IMG/VR virus record: IMGVR_UViG_3300044712_001401 | Span: 1 to 64,000 of that record | Strand: one strand, 5' to 3' | From: a virus | Length of the DNA stretch: 64,000 nt | Part shown: positions 39,703 through 61,624 of the stretch, one piece after another | How positions within the stretch are numbered: the stretch's first letter is position 1 | How the letters are laid out: each line of letters begins with the position of its first letter | Notes under the pieces: generated by a model | The model's input: only the letters and a program-made list of their open reading frames with translations | Told to the model about the DNA's origin: nothing | Databases searched by the model: none | Made by a program: the position numbers and the translations under genes

Positions 39703-40623
39703 ATGTCGAAAAACTGCTCGTTTTATCTGGGACCGGCGGTAAACCTTTCGGCTCGAAAAGTGCGGGTCGTTTGCACGAACTATCAACCGCCCGATCTCAT
39801 TACGCAGCAGACGCTCGCGGGAAACGCGACGACGTTCTCCATCGAACTTGAGGACGATAAGAAATACGAGATTCGCTTGATCGACGTGCGCGGCGGCGTG
39901 GACGGTCTCCCGTCGTACCTGCGAGTCGATACGTCTTCCGATTTGATTCCGTTTCAGTCCGGCGAAATCGTGCTCGTATCGGCGGAGGACACTTCCTCCT
40001 CGTCGCTATCGTCGCTGTCGTCGGTATCGTCGTCATCGTCTCGCGGATCGTCGCTCTCGTCCAAGTCGAGTAGCAGCCGGTCCTCGTCGTCTCGCTCCAG
40101 CTCGTCGAGCCAGAGCAGCCTTAGCAGCTTGAGCAGCCTATCGTCGTCGTCGTCTCGCGGCTCGTCGCTGTCGTCGCTCTCGTCCAAGTCGAGTAGCAGC
40201 CGGTCCTCGTCGTCGAAGTCGTCTAGTGGCAGCTCGTCATCGTCGTCGATTACGCAATCGCTCTCGGCATCGTCTCGCTCGTCCAAGTCGAGCAGTAGCC
40301 GGTCGTCTGGTGGCTCGTCGCAGAGCAGCTTGACGTCGTCGCTCTCGTCGCTGTCGAGTTTAACCAGCAGCCGCTCGTCGTCGTCGTCGATGAAGTCGAT
40401 GACCGAATCCAGCCTCTCGTCGCTCTCGTCCGTCTCGTCGAGCCGGTCCAGTTTGTCGTCCGTCTCGTCGAGCCTATCGAGCCAAAGCAGCAGCCGCTCG
40501 TCGTCGTCCAAGTCGTCGAGTAGCAGCGTGTCGTCGTTGTCGTCGTCCTCGTCCAGCAATTCCAGCAGCAACTCCTCTTCGACGTCGAGCCAATCGGTCT
40601 CGTCGTCGTCGACGGAACCCTAA
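39703..40623 (+). CDS. Small beta-rich domain + approx. 200-aa poly-Ser tail (putative virion protein)
   Basis: Ser tract from approx. 39994 to the C-terminus; located in the head module. Confidence 0.7.
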   Translation: MSKNCSFYLGPAVNLSARKVRVVCTNYQPPDLITQQTLAGNATTFSIELEDDKKYEIRLIDVRGGVDGLPSYLRVDTSSDLIPFQSGEIVLVSAEDTSSSSLSSLSSVSSSSSRGSSLSSKSSSSRSSSSRSSSSSQSSLSSLSSLSSSSSRGSSLSSLSSKSSSSRSSSSKSSSGSSSSSSITQSLSASSRSSKSSSSRSSGGSSQSSLTSSLSSLSSLTSSRSSSSSMKSMTESSLSSLSSVSSSRSSLSSVSSSLSSQSSSRSSSSKSSSSSVSSLSSSSSSNSSSNSSSTSSQSVSSSSTEP

Positions 40624-40641
40624 TTTTAGGAGCATCCCGAG

Positions 40642-41022
40642 ATGGCTCGGAACCGTTTGTCCGGAATCAACGTGGCGCAAGTGGTGCGTTACGTTTTGCA
40701 GGCTCCCGTCGATTCTTTCGATGCGCTGTTTAACGCGGTCGAAGCGTCCATGCAGCGGCTCGGAGTTCCGTCGAATCGACGAGCACTTCGCGACGTCGGG
40801 CACGCGAGCGTCACGATCAACTTGCGTTCGGTGATCGCGTGGGCGGAGGCACTGCCGACGCCGACCGAGGACAACCCGATTGCGACGGAGACCGTCGACG
40901 CGCTGGTGCAAATTCACGCGGCATGCTCGACTCGCTATCGGGCATCCGGATACACGGCGAAGAAGCCGTCGGCCGAGGACGTGGCAGCCGTAAACGATTT
41001 GGGCGAACGCCAAGGCGAGTAG
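40642..41022 (+). CDS. Hypothetical protein
   Basis: AGGAG RBS. Confidence 0.65.
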   Translation: MARNRLSGINVAQVVRYVLQAPVDSFDALFNAVEASMQRLGVPSNRRALRDVGHASVTINLRSVIAWAEALPTPTEDNPIATETVDALVQIHAACSTRYRASGYTAKKPSAEDVAAVNDLGERQGE

Positions 41023-41090
41023 ATGCCGGGCGAGCGTCGGTTCGGCTCCAAAAGTTGGGACGTCTGATTCGGGTCTGGAGGATTAACGCG

Positions 41091-43859
41091 ATGTCGATTC
41101 ACGAACGGTTGGTGGAGTCGCTCAAGGCGCGAGCCGTGGCGCGCGCGGGCAAGTCGGCGAACGCGTTCGGCTATGGAATCGGTTTGGCCGAAGCGTACGT
41201 CGCTCGCGCGTTTGATGAGCTTGGCTTTGGCGAGACAATCGCAGGAGCCAAGCGAGCGGACATTCTCGCGGCATCGTCCGGCAAGTTGGTGTACTGCCAA
41301 CCGGAACTGGAGATTTTCCGCAAGACGACGCGGTCCTCTCAATTTGCGGAGCTACTTCCGGACGGAATCAAAGCCCCAGACAACACGCTCTTGGTCTTTC
41401 AGAACGTGGTGACGACGCCACGCATCGATCGCGACAAAGACGTCTTGGAAACGTCTGGCGGAATGCTTGACCCGAAGGCTCCGCTGTTGTGGCAGCACCT
41501 ATACAATCTGCCGCTCGGTCCGGTGCTCGCGACGATTGAGCACACCCCCAAGGCGCTCAAGGTCGCGTGCGCAATTGTCGACGTCAACGATCTCACATCG
41601 GACGCGGCGAAATTTGTGGAGGCGGGGGTGCTCCGTATCTCGCACGGATTCCGGGCGTTGGAGTGGGACCAGCGCAAGGCGGAGCCGGGGGACGCGATGG
41701 GCGAACCGGGCTATCACATCACCAAGTTTGAGATAATGGAAGTCTCGCTGGTTTCCGTTCCGTCGAACGTCGATGCCGTGATCGAGATGTACGCCAAGGG
41801 CTCGCTCTCGTCCGACGTCGCGAAGGCGTGGGCTCGCAAGTCGTACGATGCTCGCCATCGCTCGTGGCGCGGCGTGACGCTCGACGACGCGAGCCAGACG
41901 GCGGTGGCTCCGTCCGGAGTCAAGCGAGTCGTGATTGACGACGCGACGCCGGCGAACGAGACGGAAGAACCGGCAATCGACTCCGGCGATGTTGATTCGA
42001 TTTGGGGCAAGTCAATTCCGGGCGGCGCGAAGGCGTTCGACGTCCAACGGCAAAACTTGGAGGCGTCGCGATTGGAGTACGAGTGGGTGTCGCGTTATCT
42101 CGGCACCGAAATCAAGAACGTCACGAGCCGGGACGAGCGAGCGTCGGGGGTGTGGGTCGGTACGTTCTTGTATGGCGTAGAGGAGGCGTTGGTTGGGCTC
42201 GACGCCAAGCAGGATGACTTGCGAAATCTGACGGACGACGGCAAGGAGATGCCACCCGAGTTTGCGCACGTCGAGCTAAACTCGAAAACGAGCCGCTCGT
42301 TCGTCGTCGAGGGGCTGCGTTTTTTTAAGACGGCTCGCGGACATCTGGTCGTCAAGACGTATCGGACGTGGCACGGCGTTGGTGTCTGCGCCTATGCGGC
42401 GGATCAGCAACTCGCAACCGACGTCATCGATTCAGCGTGGGCTCTCGGGCATCAGAAAAATCTGCTGCGCTACGAGGCTTTTTCTCTGTCGGGTGAGTTC
42501 TTGCCGGCGACGTCCGAGAAGTTTGACGGCTTGTTTTTGACGCCGGAAAACGAGGCGTCAGTGAAGCGAATCGTCCGCTTGCTCAACGAGAAGGGTGGCG
42601 ATCTGCCGAATCGCGGAATGATCCTGGCCGGACCGCCGGGGACTGGCAAGACGCTTTCCTCGCGAATCGTGCGCAACGAGGCGAACGCGACCTTCGTTTG
42701 GATTGCGGCGCGGGACTTTTCGCGATTTGGTGCGTACGGAACCTTCGGGATGGCGTTTGATTTGGCAAAGGCTCTCGGGCCGTGCGTCTTATGTTTCGAG
42801 GACATCGATTCGTGGATCGACGGATACTCGGTCGACCTGCTCAAGACGGAACTGGACGGAGTCGGGCGTAGTCGTGGCATCGTTACGATGCTATCGACGA
42901 ATCATCACCAGCGGTTGCCAAAGGCTCTCGTCGATCGGCCGGGGCGGTTCCATGACGTCTTGGTGTTTGATTTGCCGGACGACGCGACGCGCGCGAAAAT
43001 GATTGAACGGTGGCTGCCGGAACTTCCGGACGAGTCGCGGGCGCGAGTCGTGGAGCAAACCAAGGGCTACGCCGGCGCTCATGTTTTCGAGTTGTGCTAC
43101 TTTGCTCGCGTGCTCGGCGACGACGAGAAGATGGCGGTGGATGCGGCGGTCGATGTCGCGTTGAAAAAGATCTCGCAAGCCCGCGAATTGGTGGGAGCCA
43201 AGTCGGGCGAATCGCTGCAAGTCAAGGCGGCGCGTCCCGTGGCATACAAGCGGCTCGCGTTCGGAGTCAAGTCGGCGGAGACTCCGAGCGGCGTGGCCGA
43301 GGCGGCTCCGCCGCTACCGACTGCGGACGAGACGGTGCTAGACGGCTCCGCACGCGTCCCTGACGCGTCGAGCGGTGATCCGGGCGACGACACGGCAGAG
43401 CCAACCGAAAGCGGCGAGGCGGGCGACGGTGCGTCCGAGACAGGCGAACCGCTTGTCGGCACGTCGGGCGACCTGGAGACTCCGAAACAATCCGGCGCGA
43501 ACGTGAGAAAGGCCGGACGCGTCTTGAGCGAAAAGAACTTGACCGCGCTCAAGGAGTGCCAACAAGACATGGAGCACGTCATCGACAACGAGGAGCTAAG
43601 CCGTTCGGGGCTCGCGTTGATGGAGCGGTGCGTGGACAGAATCAAAACGGTGATTTCGACGGCTCAACCGGAAGTTGGGCCGGTCGTGGACCCGGCGTTG
43701 GCCGGGCAGGCGAGTGCGGCGGAGTCGCTCTCGGCAAAGAGTGCGTTTTCGTTGGCGCTGACGTTGTCATCGAAGCAAGAGCGTCGGCGATGGCGAGCCG
43801 CTCTCGATTCGGTGGTGGCTCGGGACGAAGACGATGACGTTATGGCGGATTTGATGTAA
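41091..43859 (+). CDS. HK97-type prohead protease with inserted AAA+ ATPase
   Basis: DRDKD, LLWQH, ISHGF, EVSLVSVPSN (Peptidase S78-like); GPPGTGKT, CFEDID, STNH, DRPGRF; C-terminal KAGRVLS; directly upstream of the major capsid gene; GGAGGA RBS. Confidence 0.88.
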   Translation: MSIHERLVESLKARAVARAGKSANAFGYGIGLAEAYVARAFDELGFGETIAGAKRADILAASSGKLVYCQPELEIFRKTTRSSQFAELLPDGIKAPDNTLLVFQNVVTTPRIDRDKDVLETSGGMLDPKAPLLWQHLYNLPLGPVLATIEHTPKALKVACAIVDVNDLTSDAAKFVEAGVLRISHGFRALEWDQRKAEPGDAMGEPGYHITKFEIMEVSLVSVPSNVDAVIEMYAKGSLSSDVAKAWARKSYDARHRSWRGVTLDDASQTAVAPSGVKRVVIDDATPANETEEPAIDSGDVDSIWGKSIPGGAKAFDVQRQNLEASRLEYEWVSRYLGTEIKNVTSRDERASGVWVGTFLYGVEEALVGLDAKQDDLRNLTDDGKEMPPEFAHVELNSKTSRSFVVEGLRFFKTARGHLVVKTYRTWHGVGVCAYAADQQLATDVIDSAWALGHQKNLLRYEAFSLSGEFLPATSEKFDGLFLTPENEASVKRIVRLLNEKGGDLPNRGMILAGPPGTGKTLSSRIVRNEANATFVWIAARDFSRFGAYGTFGMAFDLAKALGPCVLCFEDIDSWIDGYSVDLLKTELDGVGRSRGIVTMLSTNHHQRLPKALVDRPGRFHDVLVFDLPDDATRAKMIERWLPELPDESRARVVEQTKGYAGAHVFELCYFARVLGDDEKMAVDAAVDVALKKISQARELVGAKSGESLQVKAARPVAYKRLAFGVKSAETPSGVAEAAPPLPTADETVLDGSARVPDASSGDPGDDTAEPTESGEAGDGASETGEPLVGTSGDLETPKQSGANVRKAGRVLSEKNLTALKECQQDMEHVIDNEELSRSGLALMERCVDRIKTVISTAQPEVGPVVDPALAGQASAAESLSAKSAFSLALTLSSKQERRRWRAALDSVVARDEDDDVMADLM

Positions 43860-43918
43860 GGCGTTTTCTCGCGGCGTCCTGGGGCGTCTCGGGTTTCTTT
43901 TTTATCGGGGAGCCAGTT

Positions 43919-45520
43919 ATGAAGATTACCGCCGGCCTGAAAACTTGGGCCGTCTCGAAGGGGCTCGCGGAAAACGCGAGCGAGTTGCAAATCAAGCGGT
44001 GCGTGGCGGACGCGTTAGCGGACGGCTCGCTCACGCATGATGATTATTTGGCGTTGACGTCGGACGCACCGAACGCCGGCGCGAAGGCGTTGCTGGAGCG
44101 AATCGCGTCCTCGTTGGAGAGCGGCGTCAAGCCGGCGGCTGCGGAGGCCGGCGCGATCAAGGGCAGCGTCGGAGGAGCCACGCCGGAACCGAAGCGGGCG
44201 AAGCCGAGCGCGTTTGAGCGGGCGTTCTCGACGGCCGATGGCGACGACGAGCCGGAGCGGGTCGTCATCGAAGTCGTGGGCGTGCACGAGCGCTACGACA
44301 ACACCCGCAAGTCGGCTCGCTTTCCCGAGCGGACGATGAAGGGGGCGAAGCACTCGCGCGCCGGGCAACTGGTGACCGAAGGCGGCGACCGTGGCGTGCG
44401 CACGATCGAGGAGCCGTCGGAGTTGGATCTTGCGCTCTGCGGGGCGTACGTCAAATTCTCGATTGCGTCGCAACTGGGCGGCGTGAATCGGGTTCCTCGC
44501 CCGCTCCGTATGACGGAGCACGATTCGCAGCTCATGCAGTACGCGTTGGCGAAGGCCAAGTGGGGCGGCGTGCTCCACGGGGAGGGGACGGACGTCGAGG
44601 GAGCCATCGGCGTGAAGGGGGCTTTGCTCACGCCGAGCCAGCAAAAGGCGCTGATCGACGACGCCACGAGCGGCGGTCTCGAAATCGCGCCGATCGCGTT
44701 CGACGACGCGGTCATCATGACTCCGCTTTTGTTCTCCGAGTTCTACCAGCGGGTGAACACGGTCCCCATCACTCGCGGCCGGCGCATCGAGGGCGCGTCG
44801 ATGGGCAACGTCACGATCTCGGGGACGGGCGGCGACGATACGAACATCCCGCTGTTCAACACCGCGAGTTTCATCGCGGCGTTCGACACGACGATCTTTC
44901 CGGTCAACGGAGCGGTCGAGATTGGGCTGGATTTCATTTCCGATTCGCCAATCGACGTGGCGAATACGGTGGTGCGTCAATACGGAAACGTGTTGCTCGC
45001 GTGGCTCGACGAGCAGGTATGCATCGGCGACGGAACGACGGAGCCGGAAGGCGTGCTGAACGCGTCGGGGACGACGTCGGTGAACGCGGAGAACGGCGCG
45101 GGCGGTCCTCCGACTGTCGGCGATTACGAGAACCTGTTGTTCGGCGTGGCAAAGGCGTTCAAGGCGGGGACGAGCCCCGACCGGATCACGTTCGGCGCGA
45201 ACGAAACGACGTACCAGCGGGCACGCGGGATCGCGGTTTCGACGACGGATCAACGCCGGGTGTTCGGGATGACGCACGAGGATTACGTGCTGTTGAACCG
45301 CACGTTCGGCATCGGCGAGTTCTTTACGAATCGCCAATCCGTCTTTGTGAACTGGGCTCGCTATCGGATGTATCGTCGGCTCGGCCTGACGATCAAGGTG
45401 ACGACCGAAGGCTCGACGCTCACGCGTAAGAACCTGATGTTGCTCACCGCGCGTGCTCGCTACGGCGGACAACTGGAAGACGGTGGCGCGGCGGCCGTTT
45501 GCGCTGACGGGCAATCGTAG
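43919..45520 (+). CDS. Major capsid protein (HK97 fold) with N-terminal scaffold-like region
   Basis: SGGLEIAP, LDEQV.IGDGT.EP.GVLN, ARARYGG; position after the protease; strongly biased codon usage. Confidence 0.88.
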   Translation: MKITAGLKTWAVSKGLAENASELQIKRCVADALADGSLTHDDYLALTSDAPNAGAKALLERIASSLESGVKPAAAEAGAIKGSVGGATPEPKRAKPSAFERAFSTADGDDEPERVVIEVVGVHERYDNTRKSARFPERTMKGAKHSRAGQLVTEGGDRGVRTIEEPSELDLALCGAYVKFSIASQLGGVNRVPRPLRMTEHDSQLMQYALAKAKWGGVLHGEGTDVEGAIGVKGALLTPSQQKALIDDATSGGLEIAPIAFDDAVIMTPLLFSEFYQRVNTVPITRGRRIEGASMGNVTISGTGGDDTNIPLFNTASFIAAFDTTIFPVNGAVEIGLDFISDSPIDVANTVVRQYGNVLLAWLDEQVCIGDGTTEPEGVLNASGTTSVNAENGAGGPPTVGDYENLLFGVAKAFKAGTSPDRITFGANETTYQRARGIAVSTTDQRRVFGMTHEDYVLLNRTFGIGEFFTNRQSVFVNWARYRMYRRLGLTIKVTTEGSTLTRKNLMLLTARARYGGQLEDGGAAAVCADGQS

Positions 45521-45661
45521 TCGAAGCGGTCGCGGGCGTTGCTCGCGGCGACAAACTAGGCGAGGCGCGACCGTAGGTGTTGCGTCTCGCGTTCGAGTCT
45601 GGCACGATGCCGGGGCGAAAGCGCCGGGTTGCAGTTTTTCCGTCGGCTGCCTCACGGCGTT

Positions 45662-45694
45662 CCGCTCGGCATCATGCCGGGCGGTTTTCTTTTC
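45662..45694 (+). terminator. Intrinsic terminator after the capsid gene
   Basis: CCGCTCGGCA-TCA-TGCCGGGCGG followed by TTTTCTTTT. Confidence 0.75.
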
Positions 45695-45724
45695 ATGGCG
45701 ACGGAGCAAGACGGAGAATCTTAC

Positions 45725-46327: not shown

Positions 46328-46363
46328 GAATCGCTCGCGACTCGCGAGAGAAAGACAGGACGC

Positions 46364-46519: not shown

Positions 46520-46528
46520 CTTTAGGAG

Positions 46529-47155: not shown

Positions 47156-47962
47156 GTGGGTAGCATCTCCATCAATGGATTCGGAAACGCGGCGTTGCTC
47201 CGCTCTCCGTCGCTCGACGACGTGACGATTGAGCTGTTCGGAGTTTGTCGTCGATGTCGGCTCTATCACAAAATCAGAGCGAACCCGATGTCGTTCGGGT
47301 CGCTCGCGTTCGATTGGCAGCACAAGCACCGATTGTGCGAATTGGAGACTCCCGGCTCCGTCGAGTTCATTTCGCCACGGCGAACGATGCCAAGGAATTT
47401 CGACGATCGGATTTACAATCGGCTCGGGTATGGTCCGCAATGGCTCGACTGGCGGCCGAATGCGGACGTGAAGTTGGCGTACGCGGCAGACGCGGCGATG
47501 ACGATGGACCTTTCAGCTCTCAACTCGTCGTCGACGTTTACGCTCGGCCGAGAGTCGACGGCGGTCGACAATACGGCCAATCTCTATCTCGACTTCCGGA
47601 TCACCGGAACCTACATAGCGGGCACTACGCCGACGACTCCTGCCGAGACTCGTTTGTATTTGATTATACCAACCGATGACACCCCTGCGTGGCCAGACGT
47701 GTTCGACGGGACGGATAGCAATGAAACCGTCACGAATTCAAACATACTTGATACGCTCCCGATGTTGTGGTCTGGAACCGTTGGTACGACATCCAATCAG
47801 ACGTATCCAATTATCTCAGCGATGACGGTCGCGCAAGTGCTCGGTTTTTGCCCATCGCGGTGGGGACTGTTCTTTACTCACTTTCACACCGCCGCTCTCA
47901 AGACCGATGCGGGAAATACTAACTCGATCTACCGTCAAGGTCTTTACGCCACGGTGATTTAG
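47156..47962 (+). CDS. Putative virion protein (beta-rich C-terminal domain)
   Basis: Thr-rich; structural module. Confidence 0.6.
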   Translation: MGSISINGFGNAALLRSPSLDDVTIELFGVCRRCRLYHKIRANPMSFGSLAFDWQHKHRLCELETPGSVEFISPRRTMPRNFDDRIYNRLGYGPQWLDWRPNADVKLAYAADAAMTMDLSALNSSSTFTLGRESTAVDNTANLYLDFRITGTYIAGTTPTTPAETRLYLIIPTDDTPAWPDVFDGTDSNETVTNSNILDTLPMLWSGTVGTTSNQTYPIISAMTVAQVLGFCPSRWGLFFTHFHTAALKTDAGNTNSIYRQGLYATVI

Positions 47963-49926
47963 TGCTCACGCAAGGCGTACCCTACAATCTTGGCGGACCG
48001 ATCGAGCCGCAGCACCCGTTGCATCGGGGGCTCGTCTCGCATTTCATTTGTTTGCCTGGATTGATGGGCGGAGCGAGGCTGCAAAATAGAATAGCTCCGC
48101 ACCGCTATGCTCGTTTCGTGACCAATACGACGCGACCTTCGTGGTGGTCGTCGTTTGGACGAACGGCCGGCGCTGGCTCGATCAAGTTTCAGCATAGCTC
48201 GACGAACGGCGGCTATCTCGACCAGGACTATACGGGAATCTCCGCGTATCCGTTATCGCTCGCGGCGTGGGTGTACTGCGGAGGCATCACCGATACGTTC
48301 TACCGTGCGATCCTGACGGTCGGCTCCGACGGGTCGAATCGTGGCTGGTGTAATATCGTCGTTCGCGGGACCACATCGACTTCGATGCGGTTTGGGATGA
48401 CGACAGACAACAACGACGTAGGTGGTGGATCGGCGGCCGATACAAGCACGACAAATTACTCATCCGCATGGCATCACGTAGTGGGGGTCTGGGAGTCAGC
48501 AACATCGAGAAAACTGTACGTCGACGGGCTGCTGCTTGCGACCTATACGTCGTCAGTCACGCTTGCCGCTGGAATCGCGACCGGTTCAACGTGGCTCGGC
48601 GCGCAGAACCTTCGCGGGTCTGTCTCTGGCAATACATCGCTGACCGGCTACGCAGACGATTGGAGAGTTTGGAATCGCGGCTTGTCGTCGTCGGAGGTTT
48701 GGACGCTTTACAATCTCACTCGCGTAGGTAGCCCCATGCGCTACGTGCGAGGATGTCGGATTAGTTCGATTTTGCTCGACGGAGACACGGCGGTTTCGAG
48801 CCAATCATCTTCGCTTAGCTCGCTCTCGTCTTCGCGTTCGTCGTCTTCGCGTTCGTCGCTTAGCTCGCTCTCATCGTTGTCGAGCCTGTCGAGTTCGTCG
48901 CGTTCGTCCTCGTCGATTAGCTCGCTCTCATCGTTGTCGAGCCTGTCGAGTTCGTCGCGTTCGTCCTCGTCGATTAGCTCGCTCTCGTCGTTGTCGTCGT
49001 CGAGCGTGTCGAGCCTTAGTAGCTTGTCGAGCCTGTCGACGTCTTCGCGTTCGTCGTCGTCTCGCTCGTCGTCGTCGATATCGAGCGTGTCGAGTCTCTC
49101 GACGTTGTCGAGTCAATCGAGTTCGTCGCTGTCGAGCCTGTCAAGCCAATCGAGTTCGTCGCGGTCGTCGAGTTCGTCGCTCTCGTCGCTGTCGTCGCTG
49201 TCGAGTTCGTCTCGCTCGTCGTCGAGCGTGTCGAGCCCAAGCAGTTTATCAACGCAGTCATCGCAGTCGACGTCGAGCCTGTCGAGCTTGTCGAGTGCGT
49301 CGAGCGCGTCGGTGATATCGCTATCGACTCCGTCAAGTCAGTCCAGTTTTTCGAGTTCGTCGCGGTCGAGTTCGTCTCGGTCGAGTTCGTCTCGTTCGTC
49401 GTCGTCTCGTTCGTCGTCGTCTTCGCTTAGCTCGCTTTCGTCGTTCTCGTCCTCGTCGCGGTCCTCGTCGTCGCTGTCGAGCGCGTCGAGCGTGTCGAGC
49501 CTGTCTAGCCAATCGTCGTCGCTCTCGTCCGTCTCGTCGCTTAGCTCGCTCTCGTCGTCGAGCGTGTCGAGCATTTCAAGTGCATCGAGTTCGTCTCGCT
49601 CGTCGCTGTCGAGTTTATCAAGCCTGTCGAGTTCGTCGCGGTCGTCGTCGTCGCTTAGCTCATTGTCGAGCCAATCAAGCTCGTCGGTTTCTTCGTCGAG
49701 CGCGTCGAGCGTGTCGAGCCTGTCTACCCAATCGGTTAACTCGTCGTCGTTCTCATCGTCGCTCTCGTCCGTCTCGTCGTCGTCTGTCTCGTCGTCGAGC
49801 ACGTCCGACGCGTTCGGTGGGCATCCGTGGCCTGGATACGCGACGGCTGCGGGGCGGACCGGAGAAAATGACGGGGGCGGATACGCGACGGTGTCGGGCG
49901 GCTATAGCGGCGTTGTTGTTCGCTAG
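47962..49926 (+). CDS. LamG/concanavalin-A-like lectin domain + approx. 330-aa poly-Ser tract
   Basis: SLAAWV, WHHVVGVW, LYVDG, G..DDWRVWNRGLS..EV..LY; Ser tract approx. 48796-49806. Confidence 0.82.
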   Translation: MLTQGVPYNLGGPIEPQHPLHRGLVSHFICLPGLMGGARLQNRIAPHRYARFVTNTTRPSWWSSFGRTAGAGSIKFQHSSTNGGYLDQDYTGISAYPLSLAAWVYCGGITDTFYRAILTVGSDGSNRGWCNIVVRGTTSTSMRFGMTTDNNDVGGGSAADTSTTNYSSAWHHVVGVWESATSRKLYVDGLLLATYTSSVTLAAGIATGSTWLGAQNLRGSVSGNTSLTGYADDWRVWNRGLSSSEVWTLYNLTRVGSPMRYVRGCRISSILLDGDTAVSSQSSSLSSLSSSRSSSSRSSLSSLSSLSSLSSSSRSSSSISSLSSLSSLSSSSRSSSSISSLSSLSSSSVSSLSSLSSLSTSSRSSSSRSSSSISSVSSLSTLSSQSSSSLSSLSSQSSSSRSSSSSLSSLSSLSSSSRSSSSVSSPSSLSTQSSQSTSSLSSLSSASSASVISLSTPSSQSSFSSSSRSSSSRSSSSRSSSSRSSSSSLSSLSSFSSSSRSSSSLSSASSVSSLSSQSSSLSSVSSLSSLSSSSVSSISSASSSSRSSLSSLSSLSSSSRSSSSLSSLSSQSSSSVSSSSASSVSSLSTQSVNSSSFSSSLSSVSSSSVSSSSTSDAFGGHPWPGYATAAGRTGENDGGGYATVSGGYSGVVVR

Positions 49927-49936
49927 GAGGTGTGTT

Positions 49937-50284
49937 GTGAGTGTCAATCTTGTCGCGCAACGACGACGGACCTTGATTCGGGAGTTCACGTTTTACGACA
50001 CGGGCGACGAGCTACTAACGATCGACGCGGGGGATGTGATCGAGGTCCGCATCGGGCGCAACGGCTCTCCCGCGTTGATTGAAATCTCGTCGGCGGGGCC
50101 GACCGCAAACGGGAGCACGTGCCAGCAAAATAACCCGTGCGTGGTTGTCTTTCACGAGGACGACGTTTCCGAATTGCACGCGGGCAACTACGATCTTGAA
50201 ATCGTGCTCGTCGACGCAAGCCGTGGCGGCGTGGAACTTGAGATTGAACGCGGCGTGTTTTCGGTCTTGGAGGCGGTGCAATGA
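49937..50284 (+). CDS. Hypothetical virion-associated protein
   Basis: AGGAGG RBS; G.YDLEI...G.F.V pattern. Confidence 0.6.
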   Translation: MSVNLVAQRRRTLIREFTFYDTGDELLTIDAGDVIEVRIGRNGSPALIEISSAGPTANGSTCQQNNPCVVVFHEDDVSELHAGNYDLEIVLVDASRGGVELEIERGVFSVLEAVQ

Positions 50285-51111
50285 GCGTATTGATTTCCGA
50301 GGCTGACGTGCGGGTGTCGCTAGGAATCGCCGCGATCATCACGGACGAGGAGCGGCAGGTGCTCTCGACGGTTGTTGTCGAAGCGACCAAGGCAATCGCC
50401 GATTTTCTCGGATACGATCCGGTGCAGCGTTCGGTCACCGAGTTCTACCCGCGAGGCAATTTGGCAAGCTCGCGGCGTGGCTCGGAAGAGTTCGACTCCA
50501 ACGGAACGCGAGCCTACATCCGCAGCACTAGTGGGCGTCGTCAGACGCTCCAGCTTGCGCGGCTCCCGGTGCGATCCGTGGCGTCAGTTCGCGTCGATCT
50601 CACCGGGCGATTCGGGCAGGCGTCCGGGGCGTTTCCAGGTAGCACCGAGTTGGTTTCAGGCGTCGATTACTGGGCGGAGTTCGAGGAAGCGAACCTATGC
50701 CAATCTGGCATGCTGATTTCAACGGGGCTTTGGCCGACGGAGCCGGGCAGCGTGCGGGTCACCTACGTCGCGGGGTACTCGTCGCAGGAATTGGCGGGTC
50801 GGGCGTATACGACTGAAACCGTCGGCGGAGACGTCACGGAGTACACCAACGCCGGCGTAAACGCGTCGGCGATCGTACGAGCCGCGAAGCTCACGGCCTC
50901 CAAGTTTTTCCAAACCGAGATGTCGAACCGGAAGTCGTCGGCGACGGGGTGGCGAGCGGCCGGCTCGCTCACCGGCGAGAAGCTCGGAGACTACGCTTAC
51001 ACGAAAGACGCGATGGCGTCTCGCTCGCTCACCGGGATGGCGATTAGCCTTCCAGGGGAGGCGGCCGAGTTGCTGGAGCCCTACGTGCACTACGGCTTAG
51101 CTCGGACGTAG
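50281..51111 (+). CDS. Head-tail connector (adaptor) protein
   Basis: L.RLPV.SV.SV, V.VTY.AGY, EKLGDYAY, LLEPY. Confidence 0.75.
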   Translation: MSVLISEADVRVSLGIAAIITDEERQVLSTVVVEATKAIADFLGYDPVQRSVTEFYPRGNLASSRRGSEEFDSNGTRAYIRSTSGRRQTLQLARLPVRSVASVRVDLTGRFGQASGAFPGSTELVSGVDYWAEFEEANLCQSGMLISTGLWPTEPGSVRVTYVAGYSSQELAGRAYTTETVGGDVTEYTNAGVNASAIVRAAKLTASKFFQTEMSNRKSSATGWRAAGSLTGEKLGDYAYTKDAMASRSLTGMAISLPGEAAELLEPYVHYGLART

Positions 51112-52014: not shown

Positions 52015-52029
52015 AGCGAGGGCGCAAAC

Positions 52030-53076: not shown

Positions 53077-53748
53077 GTGGCGATGGGCGAGCGAACTGGC
53101 GAGGCGCAAATCAAGATCACGGTCGGCGGGAATATCTACAACACTTCCGGCCTGAACGTGTCGACGTCGATCATTGGCGCGGCAATTACGAAGCTCACGC
53201 TCGAATCGGGCATTGAGGCCGACGAGTTTAACCGGGCGTGGCAAAGCATCGACCGCACGCTCGCATCGGGCGCAAGTGAGACGCTCGATTTGTACGACTT
53301 CGCGACGCTCGACATCGGAGGCGGCGCGGGGAACGACGTGCTCGGGCAGGCGTTGACGATGGAAGAAATCGTCTGTCTGGTGATCGTGCAAGAAGAGGGT
53401 CCGGGGCGACTTGAAATCAACGAGACTCCGCCGGCCAACGTGATCGCGTGGCTTGGCTCGCATACCGTGGCGAACGGCGGGGCACTCAAGGCGGGTGGCG
53501 TCCGGCTCTGGTTGGAGTCGGACGCTGACGCGTTGGACATCACCGATGCGTCCTCTCACAAGGTGACGTTTAAGGCGAACGGCGGAGCGGTCACGTACTC
53601 AATTTACATTCTCGGACGTCACGACGATAACGAGTCGTCATCGTCAAGCCTGTCATCGTCCTCGTCGTCGTCCTCGTCTCGCTCGTCGTCTTCGCGGTCG
53701 AGTTCGTCAAGCGTATCGTCGCTGTCGTCCTCGTCCTCGTCTCCGTAG
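53077..53748 (+). CDS. Putative virion protein with short C-terminal poly-Ser tail
   Basis: Ser tract approx. 53635-53742; located just before the tail tube gene. Confidence 0.7.
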   Translation: MAMGERTGEAQIKITVGGNIYNTSGLNVSTSIIGAAITKLTLESGIEADEFNRAWQSIDRTLASGASETLDLYDFATLDIGGGAGNDVLGQALTMEEIVCLVIVQEEGPGRLEINETPPANVIAWLGSHTVANGGALKAGGVRLWLESDADALDITDASSHKVTFKANGGAVTYSIYILGRHDDNESSSSSLSSSSSSSSSRSSSSRSSSSSVSSLSSSSSSP

Positions 53749-54257: not shown

Positions 54258-54304
54258 TCGCACTTGCGGCGATAATCGGTGGGCAACTAGGTACGGCAAT
54301 TCCG

Positions 54305-54338: not shown

Positions 54339-54357
54339 ATTTTGACAGACGGAGACG

Positions 54358-55481: not shown

Positions 55482-57494
55482 ATGGCTGCATCTGTAAAAC
55501 TCGCCGAGGCGTTCGTTGCGCTCACAATGAATCTCGGCGGATTGCGAGAAGGGCTCTCATCCGCCAAGTCGGAGATCTCCGCCGGCGTTGCTGGATTTCA
55601 ATCGCTGCTGGGTGGGCTTGGCTTGGCGGGCGGACTGGGTGGGTTCTATCTGGGAGCCGAGGCGGCTGCCGATTCTGCGCTGCGCGGAATTGACGCGCAA
55701 GCGAGGCTCGCGGCCGCGCTCAAGGCTACTGGAGGAGCGGCCGGATTTTCGGCGGAGGAGTTGGCTTCGTGGGCGGGTGAATTGCAAGACGCAACCAACA
55801 TCGAAGATGAAACCATCATGGAATCGATGGCGCTCTTGTCGACGTTCAAGAGCGTGCAAAACGACGTGTTCAAACGTGGAACGCAAGCGGCTCTCGACTT
55901 AGCAAAGACGGGGTTCGGCTCGGCGGAGTCGCAAGCTGTCGCGCTGGGAAAGGCGTTAGAGAATCCAACAAAGGGCATTACGGCGCTCGGGCGGTCCGGC
56001 GTTACGTTTACGGATGCCGAGAAGGCAAAGATCAAGGAGCTACAAAAGAGCGGCAATCTCTACGAGGCGCAGCTTGTCATCTTGAACGCTGTCGAGGGGC
56101 AGGTCAAAGGCGTCGCGGAAGCCATGCGAAACACGCCGGCGGGGCAATACGAGGCGGCGAAAATCGCGCTCGGAGATTTGCAAGAGGAGCTAGGCGGAGC
56201 CGTCTTGCCTAGTCTTACGCGATTCAAGCAGCAGGTCGTCTCGGCGGCCGGCGTGGGGCTCGTCTTCGCGAAGGGGCTCCTGGCGGTCAATGACGCGTTA
56301 GGCGGGATGCCTGGAACACTCGCGGCCGTTTCGTCTGGCGTCATGGCGGTCGCGGCGGCGCTCAAGGCGGCGCGGCTCGCGGGTCTCACGTTCGGCGCTG
56401 CCATGCGGACCGCATTGATTGGGACCGGCGTTGGTATTTTGCTGGTGGCGTTGGGCTCGATAGCCTCGCTGATTTGGTCGGCGATTGAGGCGGCGATCGA
56501 GTTCGCAAAAACGCAGGGCGAGTGGGAGGGAATTGTCGCGCAGTTTTCGGTTGCGTGGGAAAACGTGGTCGCTTCGTTCGACGCGATTTGGCAATCGCTG
56601 GTTTCAATTGCGACGTCGGCGCTTGCGGCAATCGGCATCGACATTGAGACAACGACAGAGGACGGCTTGTCGTCGTTTGGCTCGTTCGTGCTCTCGGCGA
56701 TTCAATGGTTTGCGGACTTGGCGGTGAACGCGTCCGAGTGGCTGCGAGTCATTGCCGAGAACGCCGGGACCGTTTGGGAAATGGTGAAAAACGGTCTCTG
56801 GGTCGCGTTGCTCTTCATGGGCGATTTGCTGATGAACTGGCCGGGTGTTTGGTCTTACATGAGCGGGCGAGTGTTACGGTTCTTCTGGGACATGCTGATG
56901 TCGTTGATCGACTTCCTGGCGAAAGCCCTGGAAGTAATGGCGAACGCGGTCGGGGAGTTTGTGGGGTGGCTCTGGGACGCAATCAAAGCGGCTATCACCG
57001 GAGACGCAATCCCAGATTTTTTCGCGTCGCTCTCGTCGAGATTGATGCAAGAAGCAGCCGACGTTGGGACCGCGTTTCAAGACGGCTGGAACAAGGCGGG
57101 GATGTCGCTTACGTGGCAGCCATCGGCGGCGTTTACGAACGCGATTAAAGAGCAGGAGCGACTCGCCGATAAGTTACTAGACGCAAAGGCGCAGCTAGAA
57201 GCCGGCCGTGGCGGGCGTCTTGCGGACCTTCTCAAAGGTGACAAGAAAATCGGCAATGGAAACGCGGACCGAAAAGTTGAAATCAGCGCGGCCGAGCTAA
57301 AAGTTCCCAGCGGGTTCATCCAGTTTGACGCGCTCGGAAAAAGTTTCCAAGACGCGATGATTGAGAAGAACGACCCAGCCAAGCAAACGGCGAAAAATAC
57401 CGACCTGATGCGACAAGCGGCGGAGCGTCAAGAGCAACTCTTGAAAGACATCAAGGCGAACACGGAAGACGAAGATCAGGTTGCGGACGACTAG
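55482..57494 (+). CDS. Tape measure protein (670 aa)
   Basis: LAEAFVAL start, Ala/Gly-rich helices, LGKALENP.KGITAL.R.GV.F, periodic Trp/Phe repeats. Confidence 0.9.
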   Translation: MAASVKLAEAFVALTMNLGGLREGLSSAKSEISAGVAGFQSLLGGLGLAGGLGGFYLGAEAAADSALRGIDAQARLAAALKATGGAAGFSAEELASWAGELQDATNIEDETIMESMALLSTFKSVQNDVFKRGTQAALDLAKTGFGSAESQAVALGKALENPTKGITALGRSGVTFTDAEKAKIKELQKSGNLYEAQLVILNAVEGQVKGVAEAMRNTPAGQYEAAKIALGDLQEELGGAVLPSLTRFKQQVVSAAGVGLVFAKGLLAVNDALGGMPGTLAAVSSGVMAVAAALKAARLAGLTFGAAMRTALIGTGVGILLVALGSIASLIWSAIEAAIEFAKTQGEWEGIVAQFSVAWENVVASFDAIWQSLVSIATSALAAIGIDIETTTEDGLSSFGSFVLSAIQWFADLAVNASEWLRVIAENAGTVWEMVKNGLWVALLFMGDLLMNWPGVWSYMSGRVLRFFWDMLMSLIDFLAKALEVMANAVGEFVGWLWDAIKAAITGDAIPDFFASLSSRLMQEAADVGTAFQDGWNKAGMSLTWQPSAAFTNAIKEQERLADKLLDAKAQLEAGRGGRLADLLKGDKKIGNGNADRKVEISAAELKVPSGFIQFDALGKSFQDAMIEKNDPAKQTAKNTDLMRQAAERQEQLLKDIKANTEDEDQVADD

Positions 57495-57514
57495 ACCGCT
57501 CCGGGAGGTTAGTT

Positions 57515-58441
57515 ATGGGCTCTGATATTGACGACGCGCGCCTAGCTACCGATGGCGGGATTCCGTACAAGCTCATGGAGGGCTATCCGCGAATCTCCGC
57601 AAGCGACGACGGCTGCTCAGCGGAGGAGCAATACTTGATTCGCTCGCGAGACGTCGCGGCGTTCTTTGCGGAATCGATGCCTCCGCCGATTGTGTTTCTT
57701 GATTTCATTACGCAGCCGGCGCGGCGGCGTATGCCGGGAACCGGATTCTTGGTGACAAAGGAGGTTTCGTTCGAGCCATTCGACAAAACGAAACCGGGCG
57801 ATCCGTTTCGCGTTGATCCGTCGGCGGCGTCCGGAACCTATTCAGATTTGTACGTCGCGAATATCAAGTACGAGACAGGGCAGGAGAGCGACGAGACAGA
57901 GCACGACGAGAACAAGCCGGAGACGTTTCTGGAGCATGACGTCAACGTGGGCGGCGAGTTCCTTAGTATTCCGCCAGCAAAGACGAAGATTGTCGAAGAC
58001 GACCTAGGGACTCCGCAATCGTACGGCGCAGCGGTGGACAATCCGGATCGCAATTCTCCGGTGCAAAAAATCGTCGCGACGATGGAGCATAACTTGCGGT
58101 GGAAGTTCGTGCTCGTGCCTCCGTGGGAAGAAATTCTGCGACAGTTAGGCCACGTGAACCGCGCACGTCATGCGGTTTTTTTTGACTCGCCCGCCGAGTG
58201 CGTTTTGTTCATGGGAGTGAGTGGGAAGCGGCAGTACCTTTGGAACGGCGCAAGCGTCGTCGTACAACCGTGGAGTCTCGACTACAAGTTTTCCGCGAAA
58301 GAGATTACCGAGGGCGCGAACACCTGGGGTTGGAATCACGTGTACTCTCCCGACAAGGGAAAGTTTGTGCGGCTATTTCGCGCGGGCGGGCTGCCGTTGT
58401 ACGAGTCTGCCGATTTCACGCTTCTATTTAAGAAGGGGTAG
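57515..58441 (+). CDS. Tail tip/distal tail protein
   Basis: Directly after the tape measure gene; GGAGG RBS; GWNH...LY...DF..L motif. Confidence 0.6.
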   Translation: MGSDIDDARLATDGGIPYKLMEGYPRISASDDGCSAEEQYLIRSRDVAAFFAESMPPPIVFLDFITQPARRRMPGTGFLVTKEVSFEPFDKTKPGDPFRVDPSAASGTYSDLYVANIKYETGQESDETEHDENKPETFLEHDVNVGGEFLSIPPAKTKIVEDDLGTPQSYGAAVDNPDRNSPVQKIVATMEHNLRWKFVLVPPWEEILRQLGHVNRARHAVFFDSPAECVLFMGVSGKRQYLWNGASVVVQPWSLDYKFSAKEITEGANTWGWNHVYSPDKGKFVRLFRAGGLPLYESADFTLLFKKG

Positions 58442-58444
58442 AAC

Positions 58445-60118
58445 GTGCCACGCGAGCCGATGAGAGAGCACTCCGGGACCGGCGCTTACAAGGTCTCCGG
58501 AAAATGGCTTACGCAGCATGCGCGGCTGCACAATGCCGATTTGTTGGGGAACGGCGTTGGATGGGACCGCCGCACGAAGGGACACATCGGCGCGCAAAAC
58601 TCCGACGAGCCACTTCGTATTGGGCCGGCGACGATTGTTGAAGTTGTATCTGGCGAGGCGTTCACGTATCGCGCGCGGTTTCGTTGGTGGTCGGGGACGT
58701 CTGGAATTTGGCAAGAAATGCAGGAAGACCTGCTGCTTGATTCGTCGGCATACTGGGAGGGCATCGTCTCAGACGAATCGGTTGAAGTCGGCATCTCGGG
58801 TGTGTGCTCGTTGCTCTCGGACGCGAGCAACTCTCCGGTGGCCGGGCCGGCGTTTGGTGCGATTCCAACGTTTTACGCAGGCGATGTGGTGATTGCTTAT
58901 TGGGACTCCGTGCGGCAGCGGCTCATTCCGATTATTTCTCCGCCGGAGCCAGAAGCGCAAGCCGAGTTCGTTTCGCTCACGCAGCAAGCGATTGCGTATC
59001 GAGCCGACCGCCCCGATTCAAACTATGTCGAGGCGTATATTGAAGTCTTGTTGCCGGCCGGTTCCTGGACGCGTCGCGCAAAGATTTGTTGGCCGGTTCC
59101 TCGTTACGACCGGGGGCGGTGGTACGATAGCCGGTCAGGCTTTTTGACGTTCTACGCACCGAACGCGTTGGGCTCAACTACGAGCGTTCGGATGCGTTTT
59201 GTGTCGTCCGTTTCGTCTTACGAAATTGACGTTCTTGAAGCTCGTCTGCGGTTCTACCCAATTGCGAGATTGTCAGTTGGAGCTACGGGGACCGGCTCGA
59301 CTGTCTCGGGGCGTTCTGGCGGAACCGTAAAGACGGGTTTTGCTGTCATCGGTGGAACGCCGGGGCGATTTGCCGATTCGCCCTATTTTTCGACTGCCGG
59401 CGGACCGGTCGATATCAGCTATTCGGACGCGTGCGACGGCTGGGTTATCGGTCTGGAATACTCGGCGATAATTGGCAACATCGAGCAATCATCGTCTGCC
59501 TCGTCGTCGTCTAGTTCGTCGTCGAGCAGCAGCAGCTCGTCTAGTTCGTCTAGCTCGTCGTCGAGCAGTAGCAGCTCGTCGAAGTCGTCATCCTCGTCAA
59601 GCGAGTCGTCAGAGCACACCTACTGCTACTGCGTGGTTGTCTCGGACGTAATTTGCAACTTGGACGGAACGGTCGCGGCCGTATGTTATACGACGCTGAC
59701 GCTGCCGATGGTCAATGGTAGCTGCGCGACTGTGTGCGGCACTCAATACTGCGTCCCGTGCGGCGAACGGTCCTCCGCATCGTCGATGTCGTCGGTGTCG
59801 TCGCAGTCGTCTCGCTCGTCGTCGTCGCACTCGTCTTCGTCGAAGTCGTCTTCGTCTTCGTCGTCTTCGTCGCACTCGTCTTCGAGCAAGTCGAGCGTGT
59901 CAAGTTTGTCGAGCGTGTCGAGCAACTCGGCGACGTCGATCAGCGCGTTGCTATTTTGCGAGGGCGGCTGCTTGTGGGTGGCGACGCAAGTAGAGCCGTA
60001 CGTTTGGGACACTCCGCCGGTCGATACGTGCGAGGCGGGCTGCGAGTGTCCACCCCCGTCGCGTCCAACTCCGACGGGACCAGAAGACCAACTCTATGAT
60101 TTTTGCGTGCCGAGCTAG
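58445..60118 (+). CDS. Tail tip/fibre-like protein with two poly-Ser tracts flanking Cys-rich modules
   Basis: Ser tracts approx. 59489-59612 and 59770-59943; clustered Cys residues. Confidence 0.65.
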   Translation: MPREPMREHSGTGAYKVSGKWLTQHARLHNADLLGNGVGWDRRTKGHIGAQNSDEPLRIGPATIVEVVSGEAFTYRARFRWWSGTSGIWQEMQEDLLLDSSAYWEGIVSDESVEVGISGVCSLLSDASNSPVAGPAFGAIPTFYAGDVVIAYWDSVRQRLIPIISPPEPEAQAEFVSLTQQAIAYRADRPDSNYVEAYIEVLLPAGSWTRRAKICWPVPRYDRGRWYDSRSGFLTFYAPNALGSTTSVRMRFVSSVSSYEIDVLEARLRFYPIARLSVGATGTGSTVSGRSGGTVKTGFAVIGGTPGRFADSPYFSTAGGPVDISYSDACDGWVIGLEYSAIIGNIEQSSSASSSSSSSSSSSSSSSSSSSSSSSSSSSKSSSSSSESSEHTYCYCVVVSDVICNLDGTVAAVCYTTLTLPMVNGSCATVCGTQYCVPCGERSSASSMSSVSSQSSRSSSSHSSSSKSSSSSSSSSHSSSSKSSVSSLSSVSSNSATSISALLFCEGGCLWVATQVEPYVWDTPPVDTCEAGCECPPPSRPTPTGPEDQLYDFCVPS

Positions 60119-60130
60119 ACGGAGCGAGCG

Positions 60131-61624
60131 ATGAGGCGGAGACGACGAAGCGGTGGCGGAGTGTCGTCGGCAATCGCGAGATATCGCGAGGCGATGGGGC
60201 GATGGAAAGCGGCCGGCAGTCCGCTTCGGACACCACAACGGATTGAGTACATCCACAAAAAAATTTGTCGGCCGTGCACTCATTACAAACCATTGCTCGG
60301 CGATTTTGGGGTCTGTCGGCTTTGCATGTGCAGCCTGAACTTAGGCAATCGCATGAACAAGCTAGCGTGGGCAACCGAAGAGTGTCCGGACGACCCGCCA
60401 AGGTGGCTTGCGGAGATTCCGGTTCCGGCGTCGTCCTCTCCGGTGAGCGGCGTTGCTCTCGGGGGCGACGTCCAACTAGACCAGACGGAGATAGACGGCA
60501 TGACGGACCAACCGACGGTGGCGGAGACAGGCGATCGAGAAGAGAATACCGGGCGACGAGCCAGAATCGAACGGCGCGCCGCGCGGCGAGCCGCAAGGCG
60601 AGCGGCGCGAGAAGCAGAACGGCAATCGGCGGATGCAGGGGCTTTAGATCACGTCGTAGCGGACGCGTCCGCCGGGGCGTTGGCAGAATCCGTCGAGCGA
60701 CGCCGGCGACGTCGCGAGCGACGAGCGGCTCCGCCGGCTATATCGCTTCCGGCAAACGCCGACCCGCTGGAGTTATTTGGCAAAAATAGCGAGCCAATCG
60801 GCCACGCGTTGCGCAACTTGTGGGCTCCTGCGCCGGCGTTTCTGGTGTGCGGAGGACCGTCGCTCCGCTCGCTCGACGTCTCTCTGCTCGGGCAGCGTGG
60901 CGTTGTCTCGCTAGGCGTGAACAACGTCGCGGGGTTCGCGCCCGTGCGCGCTTTCGTGTGCTCGGACCCGCCGGAAAAGTTTCATCACGGGATCTGGCTG
61001 GACCCAGCGATTCTCAAGTTTGTGCCACGACCAAAACTCCCGAAACGGATTCGCGCCAAACGCGAGGATGGCTCGTTCGCGTTTACGTCAATGAGAGTCG
61101 CGGACTGCCCATCAACTTTTGCCTTTACGCGAGATTCCGAGTGGGAGCCGGAAAACTTCTTGCGACGTCCGGCGGCGACGTGGGGCGTTGGCAAGGGCGC
61201 GGCGGAAAAGACCGGACGTCCGAAGCAATTTTGTACGATGCTGCTCGGGCTGCGGCTACTCTGTTATCTCGGCGCGCGTCGCGTGTACTTGCTAGGCGTT
61301 GATTTTGCGATGGGACCAACGGACGAGAGCGGAGCCGGGAACGGATACGCGTTTAACGAGCGGCGAGACGTCGACGCGGCGGCGAGCAACAACGCCAAAT
61401 ACAAAGACGTTGCAAAGCTCGTCGCGGAGCTGCGGCCGACGTTCGAGGCGGCCGGCGTCGAAGTGTTTAATTGCAACGCGTCTTCGGCACTGACGGCGTT
61501 TCCGTTCGTGTCGTTCGAGGACGCGATTGCCGACGCTCGCCACCATATTCCGCCAGAGCCGTTTGACTTGCTCGGGTGGTACGACAAAGACGACGAGCGA
61601 GAGCGAAAAGCCGACGCGGATTAA
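60131..61624 (+). CDS. Cys-rich N-terminal domain + Maf/DUF115-CstII-fold putative glycosyltransferase (paralogue 2)
   Basis: CRPC...CRLCMC...NKLAWATEECP; AFLVCGGPSL, LGVNN, VYLLGVDF, VFNCN.SS.L.AFP. Confidence 0.7.
   Translation: MRRRRRSGGGVSSAIARYREAMGRWKAAGSPLRTPQRIEYIHKKICRPCTHYKPLLGDFGVCRLCMCSLNLGNRMNKLAWATEECPDDPPRWLAEIPVPASSSPVSGVALGGDVQLDQTEIDGMTDQPTVAETGDREENTGRRARIERRAARRAARRAAREAERQSADAGALDHVVADASAGALAESVERRRRRRERRAAPPAISLPANADPLELFGKNSEPIGHALRNLWAPAPAFLVCGGPSLRSLDVSLLGQRGVVSLGVNNVAGFAPVRAFVCSDPPEKFHHGIWLDPAILKFVPRPKLPKRIRAKREDGSFAFTSMRVADCPSTFAFTRDSEWEPENFLRRPAATWGVGKGAAEKTGRPKQFCTMLLGLRLLCYLGARRVYLLGVDFAMGPTDESGAGNGYAFNERRDVDAAASNNAKYKDVAKLVAELRPTFEAAGVEVFNCNASSALTAFPFVSFEDAIADARHHIPPEPFDLLGWYDKDDERERKADAD

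Follow-up and report, generated by a model that had tools for sequence, protein, structure and literature searches.

In the serine-rich repeat adhesins of Gram-positive bacteria, a long Ser-rich stalk presents a binding domain and receives its O-linked glycans in the cytoplasm from transferases encoded nearby; the enzymes are of the GT4-type GtfA/B kind, export is by a dedicated SecA2/Y2 system, and the repeats are dipeptide-like (SASx). Maf enzymes O-glycosylate Ser/Thr residues and can use host CMP-Kdo (bioRxiv 10.1101/2020.06.03.131540), and mycobacteriophages Che8, Corndog, and Myrna are described, in papers that cite the original study, as adding glycans to the C-terminal ends of their capsid and tail-tube subunits (PMC12619734 and PMC12363180, citing Freeman et al., 2023). 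Here, we analyze the first 64 kb (hereafter the window) of the linear, 89,065-bp IMG/VR virus record IMGVR_UViG_3300044712_001401, which comes from an uncultured phage and is 85% complete by CheckV. We consider it fairly probable that this phage encodes a system for O-glycosylating proteins, in which poly-Ser tracts of four morphogenesis-module proteins are the acceptors and two paralogous Maf/GT42-like proteins are the putative transferases. The window has a GC content of ~61%, and its + strand holds nearly all genes; genes past the window end are cited by genome coordinates.

By analogy, the proposed system would work most like Maf-type flagellin O-glycosylation (e.g. Magnetospirillum magneticum Maf, PDB 5MU5, PF01973), in which a cytoplasmic enzyme likewise modifies Ser/Thr residues of a structural protein. 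Unlike Maf, however, the phage proteins have no significant sequence match to that family and lack its flanking domains, carrying an N-terminal zinc-ribbon-like module instead; the Ser tracts that presumably serve as their acceptors are homopolymeric and belong to phage and RHS proteins instead of flagellin; and their neighbors are structural genes rather than flagellin, with no nonulosonate (Pse/Leg/Neu) genes in the record. The GT42 enzymes CstII and Cst-I of Campylobacter jejuni (PDB 1RO7, 1RO8, 2P2V) and the Pasteurella multocida enzyme 9C08 are 13–15% identical to the phage proteins, but CstII acts on lipo-oligosaccharide rather than protein, and its Tyr156 and His188 have no conserved counterpart when aligned with the phage family. 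The serine-rich repeat adhesins resemble this locus in having long Ser stalks with linked transferases and differ in that the phage tracts are near-homopolymeric Ser. With the mycobacteriophages, as far as the citing papers describe them, the locus shares phage-encoded glycosyltransferases, modification of C-terminal parts of virion subunits, and a proposed shielding role (PMC12619734, PMC12363180); the corresponding elements found here are GT8-like, GT2-like, and Maf-like genes and C-terminal poly-Ser extensions on the products of genes 39703 and 53077. The mycobacteriophage enzymes belong to other glycosyltransferase families according to the same papers, and the hosts there are actinobacterial, whereas the relatives found here point to Planctomycetota and other phyla.

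A first-pass annotation of the window had pointed to Ser tracts in four genes of the morphogenesis block, one of them with a LamG domain, and all four open reading frames (ORFs), their tracts, and the LamG domain are present as claimed. When all of the 89-kb record was scanned for poly-Ser (30-aa windows with ≥60% Ser), only these four ORFs came up, all of them on the + strand; their Ser content is 19–49%, compared to 2–14% for the other ORFs of the region. Poly-Ser protein 1 (39703..40623, alternative start 39688; 311 aa, 49% Ser) consists of a ~100-aa domain followed by ~210 aa of poly-Ser that runs from ~residue 101 to the C-terminus, and its gene sits between a MuF-like gene and a protease–AAA gene. 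Poly-Ser protein 2 (47962..49926; 654 aa, 41% Ser) begins with a LamG/concanavalin-like domain (Laminin_G_3, PF13385, residues 87–246, E 3.9e-15), continues with a ~335-aa tract at ~residues 280–615, and finishes with a short Gly-rich C-terminal end; its gene is directly 5′ of gene 49937 and the head–tail adaptor gene. The overlap of 47962–49926 with an ORF at 49580–50284 is apparent rather than real, because homology in the downstream frame starts near residue 124 and a GTG codon at 49937 follows AGGAGG. Poly-Ser protein 3 (53077..53748; 223 aa), encoded in the neck/tail module 5′ of the tape-measure gene, has a jelly-roll domain at residues 1–185 and a C-terminal Ser tract at residues 186–222. 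This jelly-roll is distinct from a tail-tube fold. Poly-Ser protein 4 (58445..60118; 557 aa), encoded in the tail module directly 5′ of the second paralogue, has two tracts, one with a run of 27 consecutive Ser, and these stalks (residues 349–388 and 443–497) separate Cys-rich modules. The modules themselves are short (residues 389–442 with 8 Cys and 498–557 with 6 Cys), matched nothing in Pfam or PHROG, and could form the distal, binding portions of a tail fiber.

Within the runs, TCN and AGY serine codons are intermixed, and the tracts lie in frame with the folded domains. The mixed codons mean that the tracts are kept at the protein level and not by one slipping codon; thus, as judged from the reading frames, the Ser tracts are coding and are selected as protein. 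The competing idea that they are neutral, functionless products of repeat slippage or base composition is very improbable. Tandem Repeats Finder (TRF) did detect tandem repeats within the tracts, and TCG is used more often than any other Ser codon of this GC-rich genome, both of which would suit slippage, but the repeats are only degenerate, with periods that are multiples of 3, and slippage does not account for the mixture of TCN and AGY codons or for the restriction of tracts to four ORFs of the 89-kb record. It is also contradicted by conservation, as the tracts stay at the same gene positions in homologues that are 33–50% identical and come from genomes of 34–67% GC.

The two paralogues had been noticed in the same annotation as proteins with shared motifs on either side of the structural block. 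Their relationship is real (42% identity over 274 aa, E 4e-49), and the motifs CGGPSL, GVNN, and GVDF occur in both. Paralogue 1 (30918..31871, + strand), a Maf/GT42-like transferase of a portal-adjacent clade, has an N-terminal 2xCxxC zinc-ribbon-like module; an alternative start lies at 30870, and the ATG at 30918 is favored by homologue conservation and by a confident model of residues 20–60. Paralogue 2 (60131..61624, + strand), a Maf/GT42-like transferase of a tail-adjacent type, had been said to follow a poly-Ser gene directly, and it starts 13 nt past the stop codon of 58445–60118. Its catalytic part spans residues 221–490 and is preceded by a 220-aa N-terminal extension with two parts, one Cys-rich and zinc-ribbon-like and the other rich in Arg and Ala. 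An N-terminal CxxC-rich module is common to both paralogues. A Maf/CstII-type fold had been suggested for these proteins, and fold comparison came out in its favor, with the Maf glycosyltransferase ranking first (5MU5; Z 12.7, 195 residues aligned, rmsd 4.0). The following matches were the 6-hydroxymethyl-7,8-dihydropterin pyrophosphokinase (HPPK) MptE (8SD5; Z 10.3, 158 residues), CstII (1RO8; Z 10.1, 179 residues), SteA (Z 9.8, 158 residues), Cst-I (Z 9.6, 187 residues), and mammalian GT29 enzymes (Z 8–9, 190–210 residues). The paralogue family shows the modified GT-A fold of the Maf central domain, and the paralogues share this core fold with MptE-like pyrophosphokinases.

Sequence profiles point to the same group of enzymes. 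A profile of the paralogue family (A1), searched against all PDB sequences, found only GT42 sialyltransferases (CstII, E 0.004; the Pasteurella enzyme, E 0.013). In the profile alignment with CstII, CGGPS falls on GNGPS and GVDF...YAW falls on GIDF...YAF, and the aligned LGxxxIYLxGxDF...YAF motif contains CstII Tyr162; both elements of the GT42 donor-binding motif, a GxGPS loop and a GxDF followed by the phosphate-binding Tyr, are therefore present. In the family alignment, Gly74, Pro75, Asp123, and Asp221 are invariant, and Ser76 and Tyr228 are nearly so. The position of CstII Tyr156, the second phosphate-binding Tyr, is variable, being Asp in paralogue 1 and Ala in paralogue 2 in a low-confidence alignment. 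The M. magneticum Maf has essential acidic residues at positions 324 and 415 and a conserved Ser (bioRxiv 10.1101/2020.06.03.131540), and we infer, by linear offset of the aligned ranges, that Asp123 and Asp221 lie roughly where these acidic residues would fall, with Ser76 likewise close to its expected place. Paralogue 2 matches phrog_4603, ‘alpha-2,3-sialyltransferase’ (E 2.7e-7), and neither paralogue has a match in NCBIfam. Neither reaches the PF01973 threshold (both E 0.24, 11.6 bits compared to a cut-off of 34.6, and profile positions 148–168 only), and relatives in a third clade of the family reach E 1.5e-5 against this profile, still under the cut-off. Because the paralogues are below the PF01973 threshold, lack the CstII catalytic His, and occur without a nonulosonate pathway, we treat them as a new family in the Maf/GT42/MptE fold group that is a member of neither Maf nor GT42. 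This family is currently unannotated; counted in 1.84 billion representatives, it comprises 702 clusters at 50% identity with E ≤1e-30 and 4,374 with E ≤1e-3, and other members are fused to S-adenosylmethionine (SAM) methyltransferases.

The second rank of MptE raises the alternative that the paralogues are MptE/thiamine-pyrophosphokinase-like phosphotransferases, which would add phosphate or phospho-linked groups to the serine tracts and thereby produce a polyanionic coat in place of a simple glycan. We regard this alternative as quite improbable. Maf gives a higher Z score than MptE with more residues aligned, and the family profile finds only GT42 sialyltransferases, by way of their donor-site motif, and does not recover 8SD5 in PDB sequences at E values up to 10. 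Moreover, no folate or pterin genes were seen in the context of the paralogues, and the fused or neighboring genes encode glycosyltransferases, methyltransferases, and a nucleotide-sugar dehydrogenase-like protein.

To the reading of the paralogues as protein O-glycosyltransferases, co-occurrence across phages adds a second line of evidence. In 54 IMG/VR loci anchored on the transferase family and extending ≤10 kb to each side (L0xx being locus labels), transferase and poly-Ser genes co-occur strongly and in several independent gene arrangements, in a test that the first-pass annotation had proposed. Poly-Ser ORFs were present in 29/54 loci (43 ORFs in 0.87 Mb, from genomes of 34–67% GC), and all 43 share the strand of the transferase. 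By comparison, control loci anchored on the DnaB helicase and the terminase of this phage carried such ORFs in 1/45 cases (611 kb; one borderline ORF) and 0/80 cases (752 kb), respectively. Because the control DNA as a whole (125 loci) holds a single borderline poly-Ser ORF in 1.36 Mb, chance is excluded; Fisher p values are ~6e-9 (DnaB) and ~8e-15 (TerL), uncorrected for relatedness and thus overstating the significance. The count of 29/54 is nevertheless a lower bound, as several negative loci share an identical transferase domain or a contig with a positive locus.

The positions of the poly-Ser genes are conserved as well. A poly-Ser protein is encoded between a homologue of gene 57515 and the transferase in 13 of 25 non-duplicate tail-type loci. 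On the head side, a poly-Ser ORF lies between the MuF and protease genes in L012, L014, L017, and L022 and after MuF in L016; a homologue of the 39703 N-domain in L018 is truncated by the contig end. Likewise, a poly-Ser ORF is directly 5′ of the homologue of gene 49937 in L012 and L022, 5′ of it in L017, and 5′ of the adaptor in L016. These slots are kept in rearranged head modules, in which adaptor genes are 5′ of the transferase and portal, and the N-domains of the slot-conserved proteins are no longer alike by BLAST. For the jelly-roll protein, 29 of 30 homologues (40–51% identity) have a poly-Ser tail, of 30–238 residues. The slots in rearranged modules, this tail, and the bacterial contigs described below lean less on common descent than the locus counts do.

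These data also bear on the possibility that the tracts serve, without modification, as flexible spacers or entropic bristles and that the enzymes act on the host envelope (for receptor masking or superinfection exclusion), on host polysaccharide, or on phage DNA. The tracts of 58445 and 47962 are linker-like in lying between folded modules, and phage glycosyltransferase clusters that modify DNA or host serotype are known (review text in PMC12619734), as would be expected for spacers and non-protein targets. This possibility nonetheless leaves unexplained the same-strand clustering of tracts near one enzyme family in genomes with GC fractions of 0.34–0.67, compared to one tract in 1.36 Mb of control DNA, and the placement of the enzyme beside poly-Ser RHS proteins in bacterial contigs. 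In addition, the terminal tails of 39703 and 53077 link nothing, and the nearest characterized enzymes by fold are protein Ser/Thr O-glycosyltransferases. We therefore judge the spacer explanation unlikely and regard the poly-Ser runs as probably sites of sugar attachment.

A maximum-likelihood tree of 63 catalytic domains assigns the paralogues to separate conserved clades, whose genes lie next to the portal gene in one case and 3′ of the tail genes in the other. Paralogue 1 is one of 14 members of a well-supported clade (100/99), in which those with known context are encoded just 5′ of the portal. Paralogue 2 clusters with L013 and L019, which share its tail-plus-cassette context, and the remaining tail-side enzymes form a further clade of 28. 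Because the two clades have separate contexts and both transferase types occur on at least two other phage contigs, the duplication is old. The third clade, of 17, contains copies from metagenome-assembled genomes (MAGs), including planctomycete ones, and several phage loci.

In MAG contigs binned as Planctomycetaceae, the transferase is fused (L135 and L136) to a DxD protein of the kind encoded in the phage cassette described below, and the fusion adjoins genes for RHS-repeat proteins 1,000–2,400 aa long, in which poly-Ser makes up the N-terminal 100–300 residues. RHS and transferase genes are in tandem in one contig and divergent in two, with GT2-methyltransferase genes alongside. The RHS/YD-repeat giants with poly-Ser N-terminal regions are encoded at L135:408–7733, L136:3101–9670 (minus strand), and L139:2–3073 (minus strand). 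In the L136 and L139 proteins, the poly-Ser region is followed by a Cys-containing segment (GCGCSLCC and a single Cys, respectively), and the L136 protein ends in a DUF6765 domain. One Planctomycetaceae MAG contig also carries cas3.

Sugar-related genes lie near both paralogues. Two genes 5′ of paralogue 1, a divergent nucleotide-sugar dehydrogenase-like gene (28585..30027, + strand; 480 aa) has a PF03721 N-terminal domain (E 1.7e-14) and a match to TIGR03026 NDP-sugar dehydrogenase that is under the family cut-off (E 1.8e-23, profile positions 2–354 of 413). The best PDB sequences for its product are the UDP-ManNAcA dehydrogenase 4R16 (E 8e-9), Cap5O, and an NDP-GalNAcA dehydrogenase, and in MAG contig L137 a homologue adjoins the transferase. 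The phage gene product may provide an activated uronic-acid sugar. Just beyond the window end, genome positions 64358–69472 hold a cassette of putative sugar-modifying genes. Its first gene encodes a DxD protein (A5 family; 64358–65335), which belongs to a conserved viral family with an invariant D-x-D, and it is followed by genes for a GT8-like transferase (65292–66203; glycogenin/GT8 profile matches of E 1e-4 around a DxD motif), a SAM methyltransferase (66080–67411), a GT2-like transferase (67303–68190; matches of E 4e-4, e.g. to chondroitin synthase, TarP, and TarS), and a second SAM methyltransferase (68007–68846). The A5 family had no PDB sequence match, and Atlas gave only weak glycosyltransferase leads; by context only, its DxD protein is probably a glycosyltransferase. 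The number of the 54 related phage loci that have a cassette homologue 3′ of the transferase varies between genes, from 14 to 29, and homologues of the 68270–69472 gene are found in only 7. Where the paralogue 2 type occurs in other phages, the same glycosyltransferase cassette then follows.

Directly 3′ of paralogue 2 and 5′ of this cassette, the record carries an Amidoligase_2 gene (61840–62679; PF12224, E 2e-26) and a class-II glutamine amidotransferase gene (63185–63874; PF13522, E 4e-13). Pairs of this kind are predicted in phages to produce small peptide or amide modifications or to attach them. The pair has no homologues in the related loci.

In the proposed mechanism, both paralogues would place a sugar on tract serines in the cytoplasm of the infected cell, before or during assembly. 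The portal-adjacent enzyme would serve the head-module proteins and the tail-adjacent enzyme the tail-module proteins, a division of labor that their gene positions make a reasonable inference and that may apply. The downstream cassette (the DxD protein, the GT8-like and GT2-like transferases, and the SAM methyltransferases) would then extend and methylate the glycan, with the nucleotide-sugar dehydrogenase-like gene perhaps supplying an acidic sugar and the host supplying other donors. The result would be a hydrophilic glycan brush on the terminal tails of 39703 and 53077 and on the inter-domain stalks of 47962 and 58445, and this brush could act as a shield for the particle or make the stalks stiffer and protect them.

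Several points weigh against this interpretation. The glycosylation is a prediction from gene content and context. With respect to the donor, no NeuB (PF03102) or CMP-sugar synthetase (PF02348) gene was found in the 89-kb, 85%-complete record. The same searches matched in control genomes, and a phage-encoded nonulosonate donor pathway was therefore rejected; any CMP-ulosonic donor would have to come from the host. Of the earlier Maf/CstII-type assignment, the likeness in fold and motif holds, and the Maf-type nonulosonate donor finds no support in gene content. As to the enzymes, CstII catalytic His188 has no aligned counterpart, as it falls in an insertion within a low-confidence stretch, and the second-best fold match is a kinase, MptE, a chemistry that context and motif disfavor. 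The co-occurrence counts are inflated by shared ancestry, as most positive loci come from a few related phage lineages. In 12 of the 25 tail-type loci no poly-Ser protein is encoded immediately 5′ of the transferase, which also suits the spacer explanation. Eight loci without recognized neighbors, seven of them in the third clade, have no poly-Ser within 10 kb; one of these is a complete 55-kb phage with a poly-Ser ORF ~20 kb away. The sole tail-less homologue of 53077 comes from a 35-kb record (L087, G001) in which neither the transferase nor the DxD protein is encoded, but this record is only 48% complete, so the missing enzyme is weak evidence. The glycosyltransferase cassette could act on another target. 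Finally, the virion location of the four poly-Ser proteins follows from gene position only; the ‘head and tail’ placement in the first-pass annotation stands to that extent, with the qualification that the 53077 domain is a jelly-roll and not a tail-tube fold. In the same G001 record, ~4 kb 3′ of the tail-less jelly-roll protein, a 202-aa ORF (20138–20743) contains a long poly-Thr run, which may represent a different acceptor chemistry.

A broader proposal, which we find plausible but hold only tentatively, is that the locus is one example of a portable poly-serine glycosylation cassette. In this proposal, an O-glycosyltransferase family of ~700 clusters at 50% identity, a distant relative of Maf and GT42, would recognize homopolymeric Ser tracts and, together with GT8-like, GT2-like, DxD, and methyltransferase partners, would build a methylated and possibly acidic brush, serving phage head and tail proteins by way of the old duplication and serving the N-terminal stalks of RHS toxins in Planctomycetota. 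If the tracts do bear glycans, many uncultured phages of several host phyla would have particles on which defined proteins are coated with mucin-like sugar, virion glycosylation would extend beyond mycobacteriophages, and the decoration of phage particles would be linked to the modification of bacterial RHS toxins. A poly-Ser tract together with the enzyme would then be a simple signature for predicting glycosylated phage proteins in metagenomes, and glyco-engineering would gain a useful tool in a transferase that accepts plain poly-Ser. Glycosylation of the tracts also bears on the protease resistance of phage particles, on surface sticking, and on escape from recognition. Our literature searches (polyserine, phage, glycosyltransferase) found no paper pairing poly-Ser phage proteins with such enzymes.

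Elsewhere in the morphogenesis block, the portal gene (32946–35153; PF04860, E 1e-27), whose product gave no matches in IMG/VR as a single query, is followed by a gene for a MuF-like head-morphogenesis protein (35110–38100) with intein/HINT domain matches (PF14890, PF07591). One 1,006-aa ORF (40839–43859) joins a prohead serine protease (PF04586) to a classical AAA ATPase domain (PF00004, E 3e-14), and homologues of this fusion precede the capsid gene in L012, L014, L017, and L022. The block continues with genes for an HK97-type major capsid protein (43919–45520), the head–tail adaptor (50281–51111), and a tape-measure-like protein (55482–57494). Ten small neighboring ORFs had no matches in phrogs. 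The large terminase gene is far upstream (14366–16102; Terminase_6C, E 2.7e-5), ~17 kb 5′ of the portal at 32946, with methylase, DUF1643, sugar dehydrogenase-like, and transferase genes between, and a split of this kind between packaging and head modules is unusual. The DUF1643 protein (30017–30619; E 4e-39) and a DUF5131 protein encoded beyond the window (genome 78516–79676, L003:17517–18677; E 8e-52) belong to phage-associated families that are widespread and have no known function. Three separate N6/N4 DNA methylase genes (PF01555; 5832–7109, 6992–8674, and 26522–27964) and a Lar-like restriction-alleviation domain (19847–20641) suggest a heavy investment in anti-restriction.

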